The notes under the pieces: generated by a model
What the model saw: only the letters and a program-made list of their open reading frames with translations
Told to the model about the DNA's origin: nothing
Database searches by the model: none
Shown: in pieces, positions 1-10,598 of the stretch
How the letters are laid out: each line of letters opens with the position of its first letter
Position numbering within the stretch: the stretch's first letter is position 1
Program-made: the position numbers and the translations under genes
Source: a virus
Taxonomy: Duplodnaviria; Caudoviricetes
Reading direction: 5' to 3' (one strand)
IMG/VR virus record: IMGVR_UViG_3300017716_003594
Coordinates: 3,424 to 67,423 of that record
DNA length: 64,000 nucleotides

Positions 1-171
1 TGCCTCACCGTGTCGTCGCCATCGTATCGCGACCGCCCGCACCAATGGGATGGCGTGCACCAGGAAACCTGGACCTACGGGTCTCCCAGCGTTGAGACCA
101 GGGTGAACCGCGTCCGCGACGAGCGGCTGGCCAAGCGCCTGGAGTTCGAGCGTACAGGAAAACCCTGGTAG
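1..171 (+). CDS. 3' end of a hypothetical protein (truncated by window edge)
   Basis: Frame 1 is open from base 1 to TAG at 169-171 (..ERLAKRLEFERTGKPW*). Confidence 0.5.
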   Translation, partial: CLTVSSPSYRDRPHQWDGVHQETWTYGSPSVETRVNRVRDERLAKRLEFERTGKPW

Positions 172-208
172 CTGAATGAGGGTTTAACTGGGCAAAGCTC
201 TCGGGTAT

Positions 209-516
209 CCTGGCTTGGCGTTCGTTGAGATCAAGCTAGGACGGCGACACCCGGGGGCAGTGCCCGGCGCCTCCACCAAGTGCCAACCGGAGACCACTGT
301 CTCCGCAGCTGTCAGGCCGCCATGTGTCGCCTGTCTCCGGTTGGTACCTGATGGGGGCGACACAGGTTCGACCGACGTTTGACTGCAAGATGGAGAGCGT
401 CGGTTGACCCCGCAAAAGTCGCGAACTAACTGCCAACGATAACGTTGACATGGAAGAAATGCGCCTCGCGGCGTAACCTTCCGGGGCCCGGCGACGCCTA
501 GCAACAGAAGTCGCCA
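209..516 (+). ncRNA. ssrA: Circularly permuted (two-piece, alphaproteobacterial-type) tmRNA
   Basis: T-arm CCGGG-GGCAGTG-CCCGG (251-267), then acceptor 3' strand CGCCTCC-A-CCA (268-278). These precede the acceptor 5' strand GGGGGCG (353-359), which pairs with it and gives a G3.U wobble. The tag ORF is at 432-476, followed by a terminal hairpin GGCGAC..CCTAGCAACAGAA..GTCGCC (490-515). The 5' start is approximate. Confidence 0.93.
432..476 (+). other. tmRNA tag reading frame, (A)ANDNVDMEEMRLAA*
   Basis: TAACT followed by GCC AAC GAT AAC GTT GAC ATG GAA GAA ATG CGC CTC GCG GCG TAA; has the ANDN start and LAA end typical of ssrA tags. Confidence 0.9.
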
Positions 517-669
517 CTTTATTCGGACGGCGGACGTCCTGTACGGTGAGGCACCTGGCCCACCAAAGAGCCGCAGCCAGGTCGGGCCAACTGGACCTCT
601 TAAGGTCCCGTCCGGAAGGCCCGCTAGGTCCCGAGCCGGGGCGTTTATGAGGAGGCTCGACGACCGCCA

Positions 670-768: not shown

Positions 769-874
769 CATTGGCGCCGGTAACAGGTACTCCCCGCACG
801 TCACCTAACGACATAGGCCGGGGGAGTTAAACGAGTGGATGCGGGACGGCCTGTCCGCCAATAAGGAGAGACCC

Positions 875-1198
875 ATGGGCTTTGATGGACGCGGCCGAGA
901 CGCCAGCACTCTCCCCGACACCGTGATGGAAAAGCTTCCTCGGACCCACGTGCCAATGCACGCCAGGGACCTGATCCGGGCGTTCGTCAAGCGCATCCAG
1001 AACATCGATGACGAGATCGCCAAGCACAACGCCGCGAAGTCTGAGGTCTACTCCGAGGCCAAAGCGCTGGGACTCTGCAAAGCCACGCTCCGCAAGGTGG
1101 TGCAGCGAGCCAGGAAGTCCAAGGACGAAGTCGAGGAAGCCGACACACTAGTCGAGCTTTACGAGCGTTGCCTCCAGCGCGATCCACTGGACGATTGA
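875..1198 (+). CDS. gapR: GapR/DUF2312 family nucleoid-associated DNA-binding protein
   Basis: RAFVKRIQNIDDEIAKHNAAKSEVYSEAKALG..TLRKVVQ..EEADTLVELY matches the GapR pattern; SD AAGGAG lies before ATG 875. Confidence 0.85.
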   Translation: MGFDGRGRDASTLPDTVMEKLPRTHVPMHARDLIRAFVKRIQNIDDEIAKHNAAKSEVYSEAKALGLCKATLRKVVQRARKSKDEVEEADTLVELYERCLQRDPLDD

Positions 1199-1254: not shown

Positions 1255-2205
1255 ATGGCCACAAGAGAGATACCGGACGCCGTTGACGGCTTCTTCCACA
1301 ACTACCGCGACCACTCCTTCAACAAGCGCACAGTCGAGATGCTCGGCCACGCGACCAGGATCGTGGACAACATGCGGGAGCAGGGCTACAAGCTCACGCT
1401 CCGCCAGCTCTATTACCGGCTGGTGTCGGAAGGGCTGATTGCCAACAATGACCACGAGTACAAGAAGCTCGGGCGCATCGTCACCCATGCACGCGAGTCC
1501 GGCCGGATGGACTGGCTGGCCATTGAAGACCGCGGCCGTCAAGCCTACGGTCCGCAGTGCGAGGAAGACCTCGACAAGCTCGCCAAGGGCATTGCCGACC
1601 AGTTGAAGTTTGACCAGTGGATGCGCCAGGACACCTACCTGGAAGTCTGGGTCGAGAAGCAGGCGCTCGAGTCCGTCATTGCTCGGCCCTGTAACCGGCT
1701 TGACGTCATCTACATGGCCTGCAAAGGTCACCTGTCGGCGTCTGAAGCCTGGCGCGCCGGCCAGCGATACCAGCGAGCCTTGGACCGCGGCAAGAACTGC
1801 GTCCTGATCCACCTGGCCGACCACGATCCGTCCGGCATCCACATGACCGAGGACAACCGTGACCGGGTCCGCATGTTCGCGGAAGACCAGGGCATAAAGG
1901 TCGAGCGCATTGCTCTGAACATGTCGCAGGTCGAACAGTACGCTCCGCCACCGAACCCGACCAAAAAGACAGACTCCCGCACGGCGTCATACAACAAGCG
2001 CTTTGGTGGCAGCTGCTGGGAGCTCGACGCTCTCGAGCCGTCGGTGCTGGACTCCCTTATCACCGGGGCAATCAACCGCTATCGTGACGAAGACCTGTGG
2101 GCCGAAGTCCTGGAGCTCGAGGCAGAAGAAAAGCGTCCGCTGGAAGCCCTGGCCGACAACTGGAACGCGGTCAAGAAGTTCATGAAGGACTCCGAGTTCT
2201 ACTGA
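1255..2205 (+). CDS. Top6A/Spo11-like protein (winged helix with catalytic Tyr plus Toprim), Mini-A-like
   Basis: LTLRQLYY (Y53/Y54), WVEK (E134) and DHDPSG (D189/D191) motifs; SD CAGGAG. Confidence 0.75.
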   Translation: MATREIPDAVDGFFHNYRDHSFNKRTVEMLGHATRIVDNMREQGYKLTLRQLYYRLVSEGLIANNDHEYKKLGRIVTHARESGRMDWLAIEDRGRQAYGPQCEEDLDKLAKGIADQLKFDQWMRQDTYLEVWVEKQALESVIARPCNRLDVIYMACKGHLSASEAWRAGQRYQRALDRGKNCVLIHLADHDPSGIHMTEDNRDRVRMFAEDQGIKVERIALNMSQVEQYAPPPNPTKKTDSRTASYNKRFGGSCWELDALEPSVLDSLITGAINRYRDEDLWAEVLELEAEEKRPLEALADNWNAVKKFMKDSEFY

Positions 2206-2495
2206 TGACCCCGGAAACGGAAAAGCGCCTGAGGGACCTCGCGGATAGTCTCCGCGGGTCCTGCCGGCTTCTCGACGACGAAGAACGGGACCTTGTAGAC
2301 GAGGCTCCCGAGTTCTTTGACACGCTGGTCTTCTGTTGCGAAGAGTGCGGCTGGTGGTGTGGGGAAGACGAGTACGGCCGGAAAGACATGCACTGCGACG
2401 AGTGCTCCCCAACCGAGGACGACGGTTTCCCGGAAGACGATGACGACGCAGACTCCGACTATGACAGCGACGACGAAGATGACGAGGACGGATAA
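2205..2495 (+). CDS. Small Cys-rich protein with very acidic tail
   Basis: TGATG overlap with the upstream gene; CCEECGWWC and HCDEC motifs; D/E-rich C-terminus. Confidence 0.7.
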   Translation: MTPETEKRLRDLADSLRGSCRLLDDEERDLVDEAPEFFDTLVFCCEECGWWCGEDEYGRKDMHCDECSPTEDDGFPEDDDDADSDYDSDDEDDEDG

Positions 2496-4965
2496 CTGGG
2501 GCCATTGGTATGTGCACCTGGGGAACCTCGTCGACAAGTGGAAGGCCTATCTCCGGCTCCACCCAAACGCCCACGCTACTGCGGACTTCGAGACCAGGTC
2601 AGCCTGTGAGCTGACCGTCGTCGGTTCCTGGCTCTACTCCAAGCATCCGACAACGCAGGCCATGTGCCTGTCCTACAAGCTGCCGGGCGAGACCTTTGTC
2701 CGTCGCTGGCATCGCGAGCACCCTGGCATTCCGGCAACGGCGCCTCCTGAGGAGCTGTTCGCCTTCATAATGGCCGGCGGCAACGTCGAAGCCCACAACG
2801 CCTTCTTTGAGCGGGTCATCTGGAAGAACGTCTGCGCCGCTCGTATGGGCTGGCCGGAAATGCCCAGTCGTCAATGGCGCTGCTCCGCCGCCAAGGCCAG
2901 CGCTTCTGCCCTGCCTCGGGACTTGGCCTTGGCCTGTAACGCCATGGGCCTGGCCATCGGGAAAGACGGCGAGGGCCGGAAGCTCATGCTCAAGATGAGC
3001 AAACCCCGTAAGCCGACCAAGAAGGAAGTCGCTGCCTGGAAGGAAGCCTGGGGCGATACCGAGATGGGTCTCGACTGGCACGAAGACCCGGACGACCTCG
3101 AGCGGCTTTGGCTGTACTGCGACCGAGACGTGCTCGCCGAAGAGGCGTTTAGCGAAGCCGTACCTGATCTTTCCCCTGACGAACTAGCTCTCTGGCAGAT
3201 AAATCAAGAGCTTAACGAGCGGGGAAGCCGGTTTGACCTGCGTTTTGCCAAGATCGCGCTGGCAGCTGCTGACAAGTGGAAAGCCGTTCTGAACCGTGAG
3301 CTCCACGCCATGACCGGCATACCCGCCGCGTCTCAGAGGGCGGTGGTCAAAGCCTGGCTCAAGGAGCACGAAGACCTCGACCTGCCCGACACCACTGGCG
3401 AAGTGGTCGACTTCTACCTGGGCCGGATCGAGATGAGCGGTCGCGCCAGGCGCGTGCTGGAGATACTCAAGCAGGTCAACCGGACGTCGATCCGGAAGTT
3501 CCAGGCCATGCTGAAGATGTGCGACCCGGACGACGAGCGGGCGCGAGACCTGCTGATGTTCCACGGCGCCAACACCGGACGCGACTCAGGCAAGGGCATC
3601 CAGGTCCACAACTTCCCACGCGGCAAGTGCGAGAACGCCTGGTCCAAGAAGGATGGCAAGCCCTACTTCGATATGGACAGGGCGGTCGAGGACGCGCTCA
3701 CCGGCGACGTCGAGTGGATGGCCTCGATGGCCGGCGACGTCATGGAGATGCTGTCCAGCGCCTTGCGCGGAGCCGTGATCCCGGCAGACGGCCGAGACCT
3801 GATCGTTGCGGACTACGCCGCCATTGAAGCCAGGTGCGTACTGTGGGAAGCCAACGCCACCGAGGCGCTGCTGATCTTCCTCCGCACCGACACAGACATC
3901 TACTGCGACATGGCGACCGGCATCTACGGCTTCGAGGTGCGGAAGAAGGACCACCCGAACGAACGCCAGTTCGGCAAGCAGGCCGTGCTGGGTCTCGGCT
4001 ACGGGATGGGCTTCATCACCTTCCTGCTCACCTGCCGAAAGTACGACATCACCTTCTCAGTCGAGCAGGTCAAGGGCATTCTCAAAGACCATTACGACAA
4101 GTACATGGACTGGGTGACCAACTACCTGTTCCCCAAGCCTGCAAAGAACCCGACGCCTGAGCAGCAGAAGAAGGACGTCGCCCGGATGCGCCAGGCGGCA
4201 AAGGTACGGTACAGGCTGATCGAGAAGCGCGAGGACCCCAAGGCGATCATCCATGAGCTCGCACTCATGAAGTACACCGTGGACGTCTACAGGTCACGCT
4301 ACCCGGAAGTCAAGAAGTTCTGGAGCGACCTGGAAGAGGCCGCCATCAGCGCCGTCGAAGCTTGGGACAAGATCATTGATGCTGGCCTGGAGGACCTGCT
4401 CGAGAACAGAGCCTGGCTCGAGACACCGGCAGGTACAGCCTGGCGCGACAAGATCAAGGGCCCGGAGTTCACCGTCGGAGATACCGGCAAGATAGTCTAC
4501 TATTGCGACCGTGGCTTCCTGTGCTGCCGTCTGCCGTCGGGTCGTATCCTGCGCTACAGGAACCCCGAGGTTAAGCCTGTGAAGACCGAGTGGGGTGCGG
4601 TCAAGAAGGGTCTGCGCTACTGGACAATCGTCAAGGGCAACAAGTGGGCTCGTACCCGCACGTACGGAGGCAAGCTGGCAGAGAACGTCACCCAGGCCGT
4701 TGCCCGCGACATCATGATGGACGCTGTCCGGCGAGCCAACGGAGACCAGGGGCACACAGTCGAGGGCAACATCATCACGTTGCACTGGGGCCCCAAGAGC
4801 GTCTACGACATCAACTTCTCGGTCCACGATGAATTGCTGGCCGAGGTAGACAAAGACAAGGGTTCCGTAAAGGACTTCGAGAACCTAATGTCTGAGACAG
4901 AGGAATGGGCAGACGGTTGCCCGATCCTGGCAGAGGGGAAACGTTTCCCCCGATACAGAAAGTGA
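2479..4965 (+). CDS. polA: Family A DNA polymerase with 3'-5' exonuclease domain
   Basis: ADFETRS (Exo I), ADYAAIEAR (motif A), RQFGKQAVLGLGYG (motif B), GGKLAENVTQAVARD, SVHDE (motif C). Start placed at ATG 2479. Confidence 0.95.
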   Translation: MTRTDNWGHWYVHLGNLVDKWKAYLRLHPNAHATADFETRSACELTVVGSWLYSKHPTTQAMCLSYKLPGETFVRRWHREHPGIPATAPPEELFAFIMAGGNVEAHNAFFERVIWKNVCAARMGWPEMPSRQWRCSAAKASASALPRDLALACNAMGLAIGKDGEGRKLMLKMSKPRKPTKKEVAAWKEAWGDTEMGLDWHEDPDDLERLWLYCDRDVLAEEAFSEAVPDLSPDELALWQINQELNERGSRFDLRFAKIALAAADKWKAVLNRELHAMTGIPAASQRAVVKAWLKEHEDLDLPDTTGEVVDFYLGRIEMSGRARRVLEILKQVNRTSIRKFQAMLKMCDPDDERARDLLMFHGANTGRDSGKGIQVHNFPRGKCENAWSKKDGKPYFDMDRAVEDALTGDVEWMASMAGDVMEMLSSALRGAVIPADGRDLIVADYAAIEARCVLWEANATEALLIFLRTDTDIYCDMATGIYGFEVRKKDHPNERQFGKQAVLGLGYGMGFITFLLTCRKYDITFSVEQVKGILKDHYDKYMDWVTNYLFPKPAKNPTPEQQKKDVARMRQAAKVRYRLIEKREDPKAIIHELALMKYTVDVYRSRYPEVKKFWSDLEEAAISAVEAWDKIIDAGLEDLLENRAWLETPAGTAWRDKIKGPEFTVGDTGKIVYYCDRGFLCCRLPSGRILRYRNPEVKPVKTEWGAVKKGLRYWTIVKGNKWARTRTYGGKLAENVTQAVARDIMMDAVRRANGDQGHTVEGNIITLHWGPKSVYDINFSVHDELLAEVDKDKGSVKDFENLMSETEEWADGCPILAEGKRFPRYRK

Positions 4966-8129: not shown

Positions 8130-8161
8130 GGGGACCGGGCATTCCGCTCGGTCCCCTTTTT
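8130..8161 (+). terminator. Rho-independent terminator
   Basis: GGGGACCG/CGGTCCCC stem followed by TTTTT. Confidence 0.75.
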
Positions 8162-8179
8162 GCTTACGGAGACAGACAG

Positions 8180-8929
8180 ATGAACGCTCTACAACGGCCC
8201 GAGGTCTTTGACCAGATCGGGGAAGGACTTGACTACCGACGCATTTACTGGCTCAACGGCCCGAACGTCAAGGGCAACGATAACAAGTGGGCCGTGAAAG
8301 ACCCGCCGACCGCTGGCTGGCAGTCAGCTATCGTGATACGGGGTGAGAAGCGGTCAACAATCTTCTGCCCGTTCTCGCTCAACAGCTGGGTGGTGCCGAA
8401 CCACTGCGCCGAGTTGACGCTGGCCAAGCACCAGCCGTTCGACGCCGAATGGTTCGCTAAGGCCATCCCGCGCATCTGGGCGGAAAACCAGAAGTTCGGC
8501 TACCAGAAGGACTACGACACCTGCGCCATGATCCTCAAGCGCATGGGTCTTCCTGTGCCTGAACAGGTCATGCGCGACGGCGAAGTGGACAACCGGGTCA
8601 AAGGCGGCAAGACAGTTGCCAAGAAGCTGGAAAAGCCCGTCAAGCTCAAGGGCAAGCGCGGACAGTTCCTGCTCTGGTTTCTGGAAGGCGGCGGCACTCG
8701 GTCCGTTCGCGAAGCCATGGCCGAGCACGGCATGTCCCGATCCAACGCACTGAGCTACCTCTACATGCTCCAGAAAGACCACGGCATCGGATACGAGCTG
8801 GTCGGCGACATGGCTCACATCAAAATGCCGGAAGGCGTCAGCAATCCGTTCGACGAACCATGGGGCGCTGAGCAAGAACCGGCCAAGGCCGAAGCTGAGG
8901 GAGTGTCCGATGACTTCCTCGACACCTGA
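8180..8929 (+). CDS. Hypothetical protein with C-terminal HTH-like segment
   Basis: SD GGAGA; RSVREAMAEHGMSRSNALSYLYML looks like a helix-turn-helix. Confidence 0.7.
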   Translation: MNALQRPEVFDQIGEGLDYRRIYWLNGPNVKGNDNKWAVKDPPTAGWQSAIVIRGEKRSTIFCPFSLNSWVVPNHCAELTLAKHQPFDAEWFAKAIPRIWAENQKFGYQKDYDTCAMILKRMGLPVPEQVMRDGEVDNRVKGGKTVAKKLEKPVKLKGKRGQFLLWFLEGGGTRSVREAMAEHGMSRSNALSYLYMLQKDHGIGYELVGDMAHIKMPEGVSNPFDEPWGAEQEPAKAEAEGVSDDFLDT

Positions 8930-9350
8930 GCGCATCATCCACCCAGTCCAACGCCTGATGGAACGCTACCGTTTGTCGTTGGAAGAAGCCAAAGCCACGC
9001 ATGTTCGCCATCACGGGGTTCTGCGGACAATGTCAGCAAAGGGCCGGTTTTTCCACTCCGGCGGCATTGTGCCAATAGAAGACGGAGACACCATCTTCTA
9101 TGCGGCCGTTGTTCGGCGTGAGAACGGTGAGGTCTTCATAGCCACCTACTACTCCAAGGCTATGTACGACAGCATGGTGCAGGGCCACAAGGCGGCGTCG
9201 CCATCTCGGCAGACTTTCGAGGTATACCGGGAAGGCGAGAAGTGCAAGATGAAAGGCATAAACACGGGTAAGCCGAAAGCGCGAGCCCGGCGTCAGCGCA
9301 TTACATCTGCTGGCTTCATCGCCAGGTACTGCCGAGGCGAGTTCGAATAA
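8910..9350 (+). CDS. Hypothetical protein
   Basis: SD GGGAG before ATG; overlaps the upstream gene end. Confidence 0.65.
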   Translation: MTSSTPERIIHPVQRLMERYRLSLEEAKATHVRHHGVLRTMSAKGRFFHSGGIVPIEDGDTIFYAAVVRRENGEVFIATYYSKAMYDSMVQGHKAASPSRQTFEVYREGEKCKMKGINTGKPKARARRQRITSAGFIARYCRGEFE

Positions 9351-9434
9351 CCCCGCCCTCGTTTCCCATTTGCTTGTTTACTCCCAGTTGGGGAGTCTGG
9401 TAATTCTCTTCCACAGTCACAGACAGGATGAGAC

Positions 9435-10598
9435 ATGGACCGGACTCCCCCACAACCTATCACCCGTGGCCTTGAGCAGGTCAAGCGCTTCCAGCAGGAA
9501 ATTCTCGACTTCCCCATCCCGCCGGTTCCGACGCGTCTTCATCCGACCCGGAAGAAGTTCGCCGTCAGCGCCATCGGCGAAGAGCTGATTGAGTTCGAGC
9601 AGGCCGAGACCCTGGCCGACGAAGCAGACGCCCTTCTGGACATGTGTTACTTTGCCTACGGCCGTCTTGTCGAGATGGGCCTTATGCCGTCGGTACTGGT
9701 CGACGAAGTTCATCGGGCCAACATGGCGAAGAAGCGCGGCGACCTGAAGAAGGCGCGCTCCGAGTTCAGCGGCGGCTATGACGCGGTCAAGCCTCCAGGC
9801 TGGACGCCTCCTGACCTCGAGCCCTACTTCATGACCCAGGACCAGATCGAGCAGGCTGCAAGTCTGATCCTGCATGGTCTTGCTGTGGATCATTCCATGG
9901 GTCATCACGGCATGTCCACCGACTGGACTCCGCCGGCTCCGCGTGTGGACACAAACAACACCCGCGAGTATAACCGCCCTCCCAAGATCATCGTGATCGG
10001 CCACGCCCGTCACGGCAAGGACACCGTGGCGGAGAAACTGTCCGACATCTACGGCCTGCCATTCACCTCGTCTTCCATCTTCTGCGCCGACAAGGTCATC
10101 CTCCCGCTGACCCAGGACGAAGACAAGCGGATGGCGTTCAGCCACCGGCTTCTCCAGCGCCTTGACTCAAAGCTCCCTGCCGAGCTGGCGCACTCGATCA
10201 GCGACCGGCTCGCCGATGTGCATGGCCAGTACGCCGACCGCGAGACCTGCTACGCCGACCGTCACCGAGACGACCTGATGCGCGCAACCTGGTACGAGGC
10301 GATCCGAGACTTCAACCGGCTCGACCAGGCAGCGCTTGCCCGGGCTATCTTCCAGGAGAATGACGTCTACTGCGGCTTGCGTTCCAAGCAAGAGCTGCGG
10401 GCGGCAATCAACTCCGGAACGGCCGACCTGGTTGTGTGGGTGGATGCGCTTGACCGCATGCCTCCCGAGCCGGCGACGTCCATCACTGTCACCGAGGCGA
10501 TGGCTCACTTCACCATCGACAACAACGGGTCCCTGGCGGACCTTGACCGGAACATCCGCGAGCTCTTCAACACTCTCGGCTTCAAGGCGGTGCGCTGA
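9435..10598 (+). CDS. MazG-like NTP pyrophosphohydrolase fused to dNMP kinase
   Basis: N-terminal EELIEFEQA..EADALLDMCYFAYG..EVHRANMAK (all-alpha NTP-PPase); C-terminal GHARHGKDT P-loop and IDNNGSL. Confidence 0.8.
   Translation: MDRTPPQPITRGLEQVKRFQQEILDFPIPPVPTRLHPTRKKFAVSAIGEELIEFEQAETLADEADALLDMCYFAYGRLVEMGLMPSVLVDEVHRANMAKKRGDLKKARSEFSGGYDAVKPPGWTPPDLEPYFMTQDQIEQAASLILHGLAVDHSMGHHGMSTDWTPPAPRVDTNNTREYNRPPKIIVIGHARHGKDTVAEKLSDIYGLPFTSSSIFCADKVILPLTQDEDKRMAFSHRLLQRLDSKLPAELAHSISDRLADVHGQYADRETCYADRHRDDLMRATWYEAIRDFNRLDQAALARAIFQENDVYCGLRSKQELRAAINSGTADLVVWVDALDRMPPEPATSITVTEAMAHFTIDNNGSLADLDRNIRELFNTLGFKAVR

Follow-up and report, generated by a model that had tools for sequence, protein, structure and literature searches.

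The DNA analysed here, referred to as the window, is a stretch of 64,000 nucleotides spanning bases 3424–67423 of a complete IMG/VR virus record (67,423 bp), which carries direct terminal repeats and is rated 100% complete. The first 8 kb of the window resemble the replication module of the Roseobacter phages RDJL Phi1 and Phi2 and of Ruegeria phage Tedan, and likewise the Rhodobacter phages RcRudolph and RcSimone-Hastad and YuA/Xp12-like phages. A permuted tmRNA (ssrA) gene heads this replication module, ~3.6 kb from the record end. An AAA ATPase gene lies upstream of it in the same direction, and its immediate surroundings are as follows:

1–171, plus strand: 3′ end of a 181-aa open reading frame (ORF) upstream of the tmRNA gene, with no Pfam match and a TAG stop codon at 169–171
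185–567, plus strand: whole permuted tmRNA (ssrA) gene, its extent as called by ARAGORN with the permuted flag
839–1198, plus strand: gene for a GapR-like DNA-binding protein (PF10073, E 1.2e-13), downstream of the tmRNA gene
1255–2205, plus strand: Top6A-like gene, following the GapR-like gene
2317–4965, plus strand: family A DNA polymerase gene (PF00476)

The ~320 nt between the tmRNA and the GapR-like gene (520–838) are devoid of a credible ORF, and inspection of this interval revealed neither an Rfam match at a permissive threshold nor a terminator-like site. A short GC hairpin lacking a U-run (~525–539) directly follows the 3′ domain of the tmRNA, as is likewise the case in the Rhodobacter phages. 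A search near the tmRNA gene brought up neither a sigma-70-like promoter nor an intrinsic terminator, and positions 1–1400 contain no riboswitch or other Rfam family at the permissive threshold.

Both ARAGORN and the Rfam covariance models, the searches proposed with an earlier sequence-only reading of the locus as a permuted two-piece tmRNA with its own tag, called a permuted tmRNA. Beside the ARAGORN prediction at 185–567, the alpha_tmRNA family (RF01849) matched window positions 179–518 over its full model (1–355 of 355; 74.4 bits, E 2.2e-18), and so did tmRNA_permuted (RF04321; model positions 1–213 of 213; 65.7 bits, E 1.9e-10). With gathering scores of 50 and 47 bits, respectively, these matches are far beyond chance, and they are the sole Rfam matches in the 64-kb window. 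The parts of the gene are:

219–278, plus strand: acceptor piece, delimited from the RF04321 alignment, the sequence and pair counts; its 5′ end is approximate
219–250, plus strand: P2 3′-side strands within the acceptor piece
251–267, plus strand: T-arm within the acceptor piece, its stem formed by 251–255 with 263–267 (5 bp) and closed by the 7-nt loop GGCAGUG
268–274, plus strand: acceptor 3′ strand CGCCUCC, followed by the discriminator A275 and an encoded CCA at 276–278
279–352, plus strand: intervening segment of 74 nt between CCA278 and G353, holding no gene
353–518, plus strand: coding piece, comprising the acceptor 5′ strand, the D-loop-like region, the P2/PK1 region, the tag ORF and the 3′ helix; its 3′ end is approximate
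353–359, plus strand: acceptor 5′ strand GGGGGCG, pairing with 274–268
360–371, plus strand: D-loop-like region of the coding piece
372–431, plus strand: P2 5′-side strands and putative PK1 region of the coding piece
432–476, plus strand: tag reading frame, with the resume codon GCC at 432–434 (Ala), the ORF at 432–473 and the stop codon TAA at 474–476
490–515, plus strand: 3′ helix, GGCGAC (490–495) with GUCGCC (510–515), enclosing the conserved loop GCCUAGCAACAGAA

In this permuted order, the T-arm, acceptor 3′ strand and CCA (251–278) precede both the acceptor 5′ strand (353–359) and the tag frame (432–476). The acceptor stem consists of seven pairs, the third being G355·U272; a G·U at the third acceptor pair is the alanine identity element. 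The earlier assignment to the alphaproteobacterial form with G3·U is thus borne out by this pair and by the RF01849 match, and all positions that had been given for the acceptor halves (251–278, 353–359), the 15-bp stem (280–294 with 333–347) and the 74-nt segment proved correct on the sequence. This stem, which contains one G·U, forms the base of the intervening segment, whose predicted fold (–35.2 kcal/mol, z = –4.74) was equalled by none of 200 shuffled sequences. Immediately 5′ of the mature 5′ G (G353) lies the tetranucleotide UGAU (349–352). Since a stem closing the intervening segment was found in 98 of the 106 permuted tmRNAs compared, and UGAU ahead of G+1 is widely conserved among them, the processing context is the standard one.

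The P2 region is shorter than in the model. The RF04321 alignment pairs an outer helix (219–223/395–399) and an inner one (244–246/376–378), with three P2 pairs deleted and two to three further pairs non-canonical. The window tmRNA scores below those of the Rhodobacter phages (74 vs. 95–98 bits with RF01849; 66 vs. 104–109 bits with RF04321). An unconstrained two-strand minimum-free-energy fold did not recover the canonical T-arm and P2, and was left out of the evidence.

ARAGORN reads the tag peptide as ANDNVDMEEMRLAA. Read in frame from 432 to 476, it ends in LAA, as the sequence-only reading had it, i.e. in a hydrophobic ClpX-type C-terminus followed by the stop codon. A helix (460–465/470–475) covers the last tag codons and the stop.

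The entire 67,423-bp record was searched for SmpB and for tyrosine integrases, and encodes neither. The completeness of the record with its terminal repeats, the replication genes on either side, the missing integrase and the synteny in cultured virulent phages (below) establish that the tmRNA gene is phage-borne, lying inside a bona fide phage genome rather than on a host flank or an attP fragment; the earlier description as phage-encoded and without SmpB therefore holds for the whole record. An attP or other integration remnant was considered as well and was ruled out by the absent integrase, the virulent relatives and the gene being full-length.

Relatives in viral contigs were sought by DNA patterns; a viral-contig search seeded with the Top6A-like protein gave no match. 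RcRudolph, RcSimone-Hastad and two IMG/VR loci have a permuted tmRNA followed by the Top6A-like, polymerase and helicase genes, the synteny of these genes being judged by tblastn. One of the latter (L101) is RcRudolph-like and shares its downstream arrangement with the window; the other (L163) is a complete 65,039-bp record with the tag ANDNQVVVAQELPLAA and a polymerase 51% identical to that of the window. Proteins adjoining the tmRNA are 45–54% identical between the window and these syntenic phages, and the constant position of the gene beside proteins so diverged argues for long residence in phages. The synteny is confined to the downstream side, as the upstream 181-aa ORF has no homology to the HIRAN-domain gene found upstream in the Rhodobacter phages. 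Whole-genome inspection of the marine Xiamenvirus-type phages RDJL Phi1 and RDJL6 and of phage Tedan revealed no permuted tmRNA, and all three have the polymerase and helicase module in common with the window phage. The gene therefore marks one sub-lineage of a wider group; either a freshwater/soil branch gained it or the marine branch lost it.

RcRudolph (OP009285) and RcSimone-Hastad (MW677525), both of cluster RcG, each possess a permuted tmRNA with the tag ANDNVRMDAQALAA (Rfam scores of 95–109 bits). It is located in the gap between a HIRAN-domain gene and a gene annotated as DNA topoisomerase, which matches the Top6A-like gene of the window. RcSimone-Hastad is the closest cultured relative of the window phage and was described as virulent (PMC8601537). 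Neither GenBank record carries a tmRNA annotation, the papers on the two phages (PMC8601537, PMC9753621) leave a tmRNA unmentioned, and both phages are absent from the table of a 2022 survey of phage tmRNAs (PMC9004378). In RcRudolph, the tmRNA (L002:2423–2758; 95–104 bits) is overlapped by a coding sequence labelled ‘hypothetical protein’ (RCRUDOLPH_61), which is probably spurious; in RcSimone-Hastad, it falls in an unannotated gap (L003:2210–2759). The gene has thus been overlooked in two phages of Rhodobacter capsulatus that are cultured and virulent; with a genetically workable host and plaque assays, they represent a tractable system for asking how carrying a tmRNA benefits a phage.

Both the structure and the tag of the RNA are under selection. 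In a MAFFT alignment of 23 phage and bacterial homologues, pair counting revealed the acceptor stem and T-arm to be 100% paired and G3·U to be invariant (23/23), while 13 pairs showed changes on both sides. In this alignment, which is unreliable in the P2 columns, the covariation score of 0.233 compares with a shuffle mean of 0.077 and was reached by none of 500 shuffles; with pairing partners slid, the score was at most 0.066. The 3′ helix (490–495/510–515) comprises six canonical pairs in the window, RcRudolph, RcSimone-Hastad, L101 and a further viral locus (L152), and its base pairs differ among these five, i.e. through compensatory changes. As for the tag, variation among phage homologues is greatest in its middle, with both ends fixed: in the syntenic lineage (window, RcRudolph, RcSimone-Hastad, L101 and L163), every tag starts with ANDN and ends with LAA. 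Judged from these comparisons, the compensatory changes and the constant LAA end point to a working RNA rather than to a passenger or a decoy.

The gene shares with the alphaproteobacterial two-piece tmRNA (RF01849/RF04321), which was described in Caulobacter by Keiler, Shapiro and Williams in 2000 (as cited in PMC9004378), the order of acceptor 3′ half, intervening hairpin, acceptor 5′ half and tag; the seven-pair acceptor stem with G3·U, 5-bp T-arm, 7-nt loop and encoded CCA; and the ANDN…LAA form of the tag as well as the conserved GCAACAGAA loop in the 3′ domain. It differs in residing in a phage genome without smpB, in its shorter P2 region and in being only ~60% identical over its whole length to the sampled bacterial genes. 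With RcRudolph and RcSimone-Hastad, the window shares the position and architecture of the gene, including a simple 3′ helix, and a tRNA-like core that is 90–93% identical (93% for the T-arm and acceptor 3′ strand, 90% for the acceptor 5′ strand and D-loop-like region). In contrast, overall identity is ~58–61%, the tags differ (ANDNVRMDAQALAA vs. ANDNVDMEEMRLAA), and the intervening segment measures 97–98 nt in these phages vs. 74 nt in the window.

Two-piece tmRNAs are already a known kind of phage gene. The 2022 survey detected tmRNA genes in 402 of 18,146 phage genomes, and 53 of 133 distinct forms were two-piece as called by ARAGORN, among them those of Caulobacter phages and of Lacusarx (PMC9004378); in the latter, a Sphingobium phage, a two-piece ssrA is annotated (PMC5648845). 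A single strict DNA pattern alone retrieved 48 permuted cores from IMG/VR. The view of the sequence-only reading that a permuted phage tmRNA is notable in itself thus has to be dropped. OM43 phage Melnitz, the survey forms (PMC9004378) and Lacusarx (PMC5648845) have in common with the window a complete alphaproteobacterial-type permuted ssrA in a phage without integrase, with a function that is inferred only. Unlike them, the window gene belongs to a ~65-kb YuA/Xp12-like siphovirus and adjoins replication genes, in a region without a detected riboswitch and with no gene in the intervening segment. Cluster C mycobacteriophages and Bacillus phage G likewise encode tmRNAs that are used with host SmpB, but these are one-piece, not permuted, and stem from phages of Gram-positive hosts (PMC4131195). 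Little is new beyond this: a siphovirus lineage joins the carriers, the gene had gone unannotated in two cultured phages, and the window gene shows the mosaic pattern described below. The window and its relatives add a clade of ~65-kb siphoviruses of alphaproteobacteria to the phages with a complete two-piece tmRNA.

Comparison of the tag with bacterial ssrA tags, likewise suggested earlier as a way to approach the host, brought out Microvirga and Enterovirga as closest. Bacterial genomes, one for each species, were scanned for tags beginning with ANDNVDM, a pattern that pre-selects the first seven residues; this returned 110 loci, mostly from these two genera (tags e.g. ANDNVDMGAVRLAA and ANDNVDMGEVRLAA). 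Their tags equal the phage tag in length, share its first seven and last four residues and differ only at positions 8–10; the tag region is 84–88% identical in nucleotides over 82–94 nt. Because of this pre-selection, an even sample of 401 alphaproteobacterial genomes served as an unbiased control. Among the matches listed for it, the tag region was strongly matched only by the Microvirga genome used as centre (94 bits) and weakly by one further genome; the remaining listed matches covered only ~30 nt of the universal T-arm/acceptor core. The sample includes two unpublished genomes (G242 and G042), and no claim is built on either.

Compared end to end, the phage RNA does not exceed 61% identity to any bacterial tmRNA sampled, and recent capture from a sampled bacterium was rejected on this ground. 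In a tree, its nearest neighbours were two viral contigs, L130 and L134 (support 0.82–0.85; deeper nodes unresolved). Across the T-arm and acceptor 3′ strand (251–278), identity to the window is 100% for L134, 93–96% for L130 and the RcG phages, and 75–79% for Microvirga/Enterovirga; across the tag frame (432–476), the corresponding values are 87%, 73–76% and 87–91%. The tRNA-like domain is the best-conserved part of the tmRNA, and the Microvirga tmRNA departs from the phage one in its T-loop and in bearing an additional hairpin in the 3′ domain. Given these region-wise identities and structural differences, the gene looks like a mosaic of a phage-type tRNA-like domain and a Microvirga-type tag, and the tag region tentatively hints at a Microvirga/Enterovirga-like host. 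Conceivably, though we regard it as doubtful, the phage lineage retains a tRNA-like domain of its own but has a tag region that tracks the tag of the host, whether through recombination with host ssrA or through convergent selection to suit the host adaptor and protease. If true, phage tmRNA tags could be used as markers for host prediction, here of a Microvirga/Enterovirga-like host, and the phage would need the host degradation system to recognise the tagged products.

Two observations on Microvirga tmRNAs were made alongside. In Microvirga sp. VF16, a tmRNA gene with the tag ANDNVDMGAVRLAA resides on pMVF16-2 (L232), a 1.39-Mb replicon labelled as a plasmid, and in Microvirga lenta the tag-start pattern occurs on two different scaffolds (L175, L204), which suggests a second ssrA copy.

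Taken as a whole, the locus most likely represents a functional alphaproteobacterial-type two-piece tmRNA gene of the phage's own, which would perform ribosome rescue together with host SmpB. From established knowledge of two-piece tmRNA, we infer the following course of expression, processing, charging and use. The tmRNA would be transcribed, probably together with the co-oriented replication genes, and its precursor would fold such that the intervening hairpin sets CCA278 beside G353. Host enzymes would then excise the 74-nt segment, as for cellular two-piece tmRNA, leaving an acceptor piece that ends in CCA paired to a coding piece that starts with G353. G3·U is expected to direct charging with alanine. 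Host SmpB, needed since the phage genome has none, would bring the tmRNA into stalled ribosomes, whereupon translation would switch to the tmRNA frame and add ANDNVDMEEMRLAA, the LAA end of which would mark the tagged product for the host ClpXP protease. The phage would probably benefit through added ribosome-rescue capacity during infection, as truncated mRNAs accumulate; this benefit is speculative, as in the published cases (PMC5648845, PMC9004378). It is also plausible that rescue would be sustained when defence nucleases cut host RNAs.

A functional RNA might nonetheless serve reprogrammed tagging, with the more acidic middle of the tag (DMEEM) altering adaptor or protease handling; tagged proteins might then be turned over faster, recycling amino acids, or be kept out of a host pathway. 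Such a role has been speculated upon for Melnitz (PMC9004378) and Lacusarx (PMC5648845) and would fit the variable tag middle between fixed ends. However, only positions 8–10 depart from the Microvirga/Enterovirga tags, with length and ends being equal, and this likeness resembles compatibility with the host system rather than divergence; we therefore deem reprogramming unlikely. The ANDN…LAA form of the lineage tags argues against a non-degradable tag and equally against a pure decoy, whose tRNA-like domain would soak up host SmpB or compete with host tmRNA and so inhibit host trans-translation. For the latter there is a precedent in a molecule resembling the tRNA-like-domain-only sequence of mycobacteriophage DS6A, which is reported to inhibit tmRNA strongly, perhaps by titrating SmpB (PMC4131195), and a phage that has no SmpB of its own and conserves its tRNA-like domain best could act similarly. 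Yet every member of the lineage keeps the full tag frame (Ala resume codon, ANDN, LAA and a stop codon within a conserved helix), for which a pure decoy would have no need, and the 3′ helix of the coding piece covaries too, rendering a decoy quite improbable.

Least of all do we expect the gene to be passenger DNA without a phage role, i.e. host ssrA acquired by imprecise excision, or an attP remnant. Integration into tmRNA genes is common, and pieces of such genes can end up in phages (PMC9004378; PMC4383910), which lends this idea some background. Here, however, the gene is complete rather than fragmentary, the record has no tyrosine integrase and the relative RcSimone-Hastad is described as virulent (PMC8601537); moreover, the locus is kept across phages with ~50% identical proteins, identity to the sampled bacterial tmRNAs does not exceed 61%, and the helices carry compensatory changes. 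A passenger is hence extremely unlikely, and a functional phage tmRNA remains the favoured reading.

The searches encountered further permuted tmRNAs in viral contigs. One call (L165:8373–8819) has an atypically long, basic tag with a double stop (AAKKVVTMPVRPRVQPLVLAYAA), the frame of which may be miscalled. Two others (L064:99–591 and L117:11449–11941) are equal in gene length and carry the tag ANDNVDMGSYALAA; their intervening segment is unusually long (176 nt in L064) and could hold something. Lastly, a 9.6-kb IMG/VR contig (L140) harbors two different permuted tmRNA genes ~600 nt apart (8159–8493 and 9090–9481), with the tags ANDNFASEDYALAA and the SAR11-like ANENFALAA.
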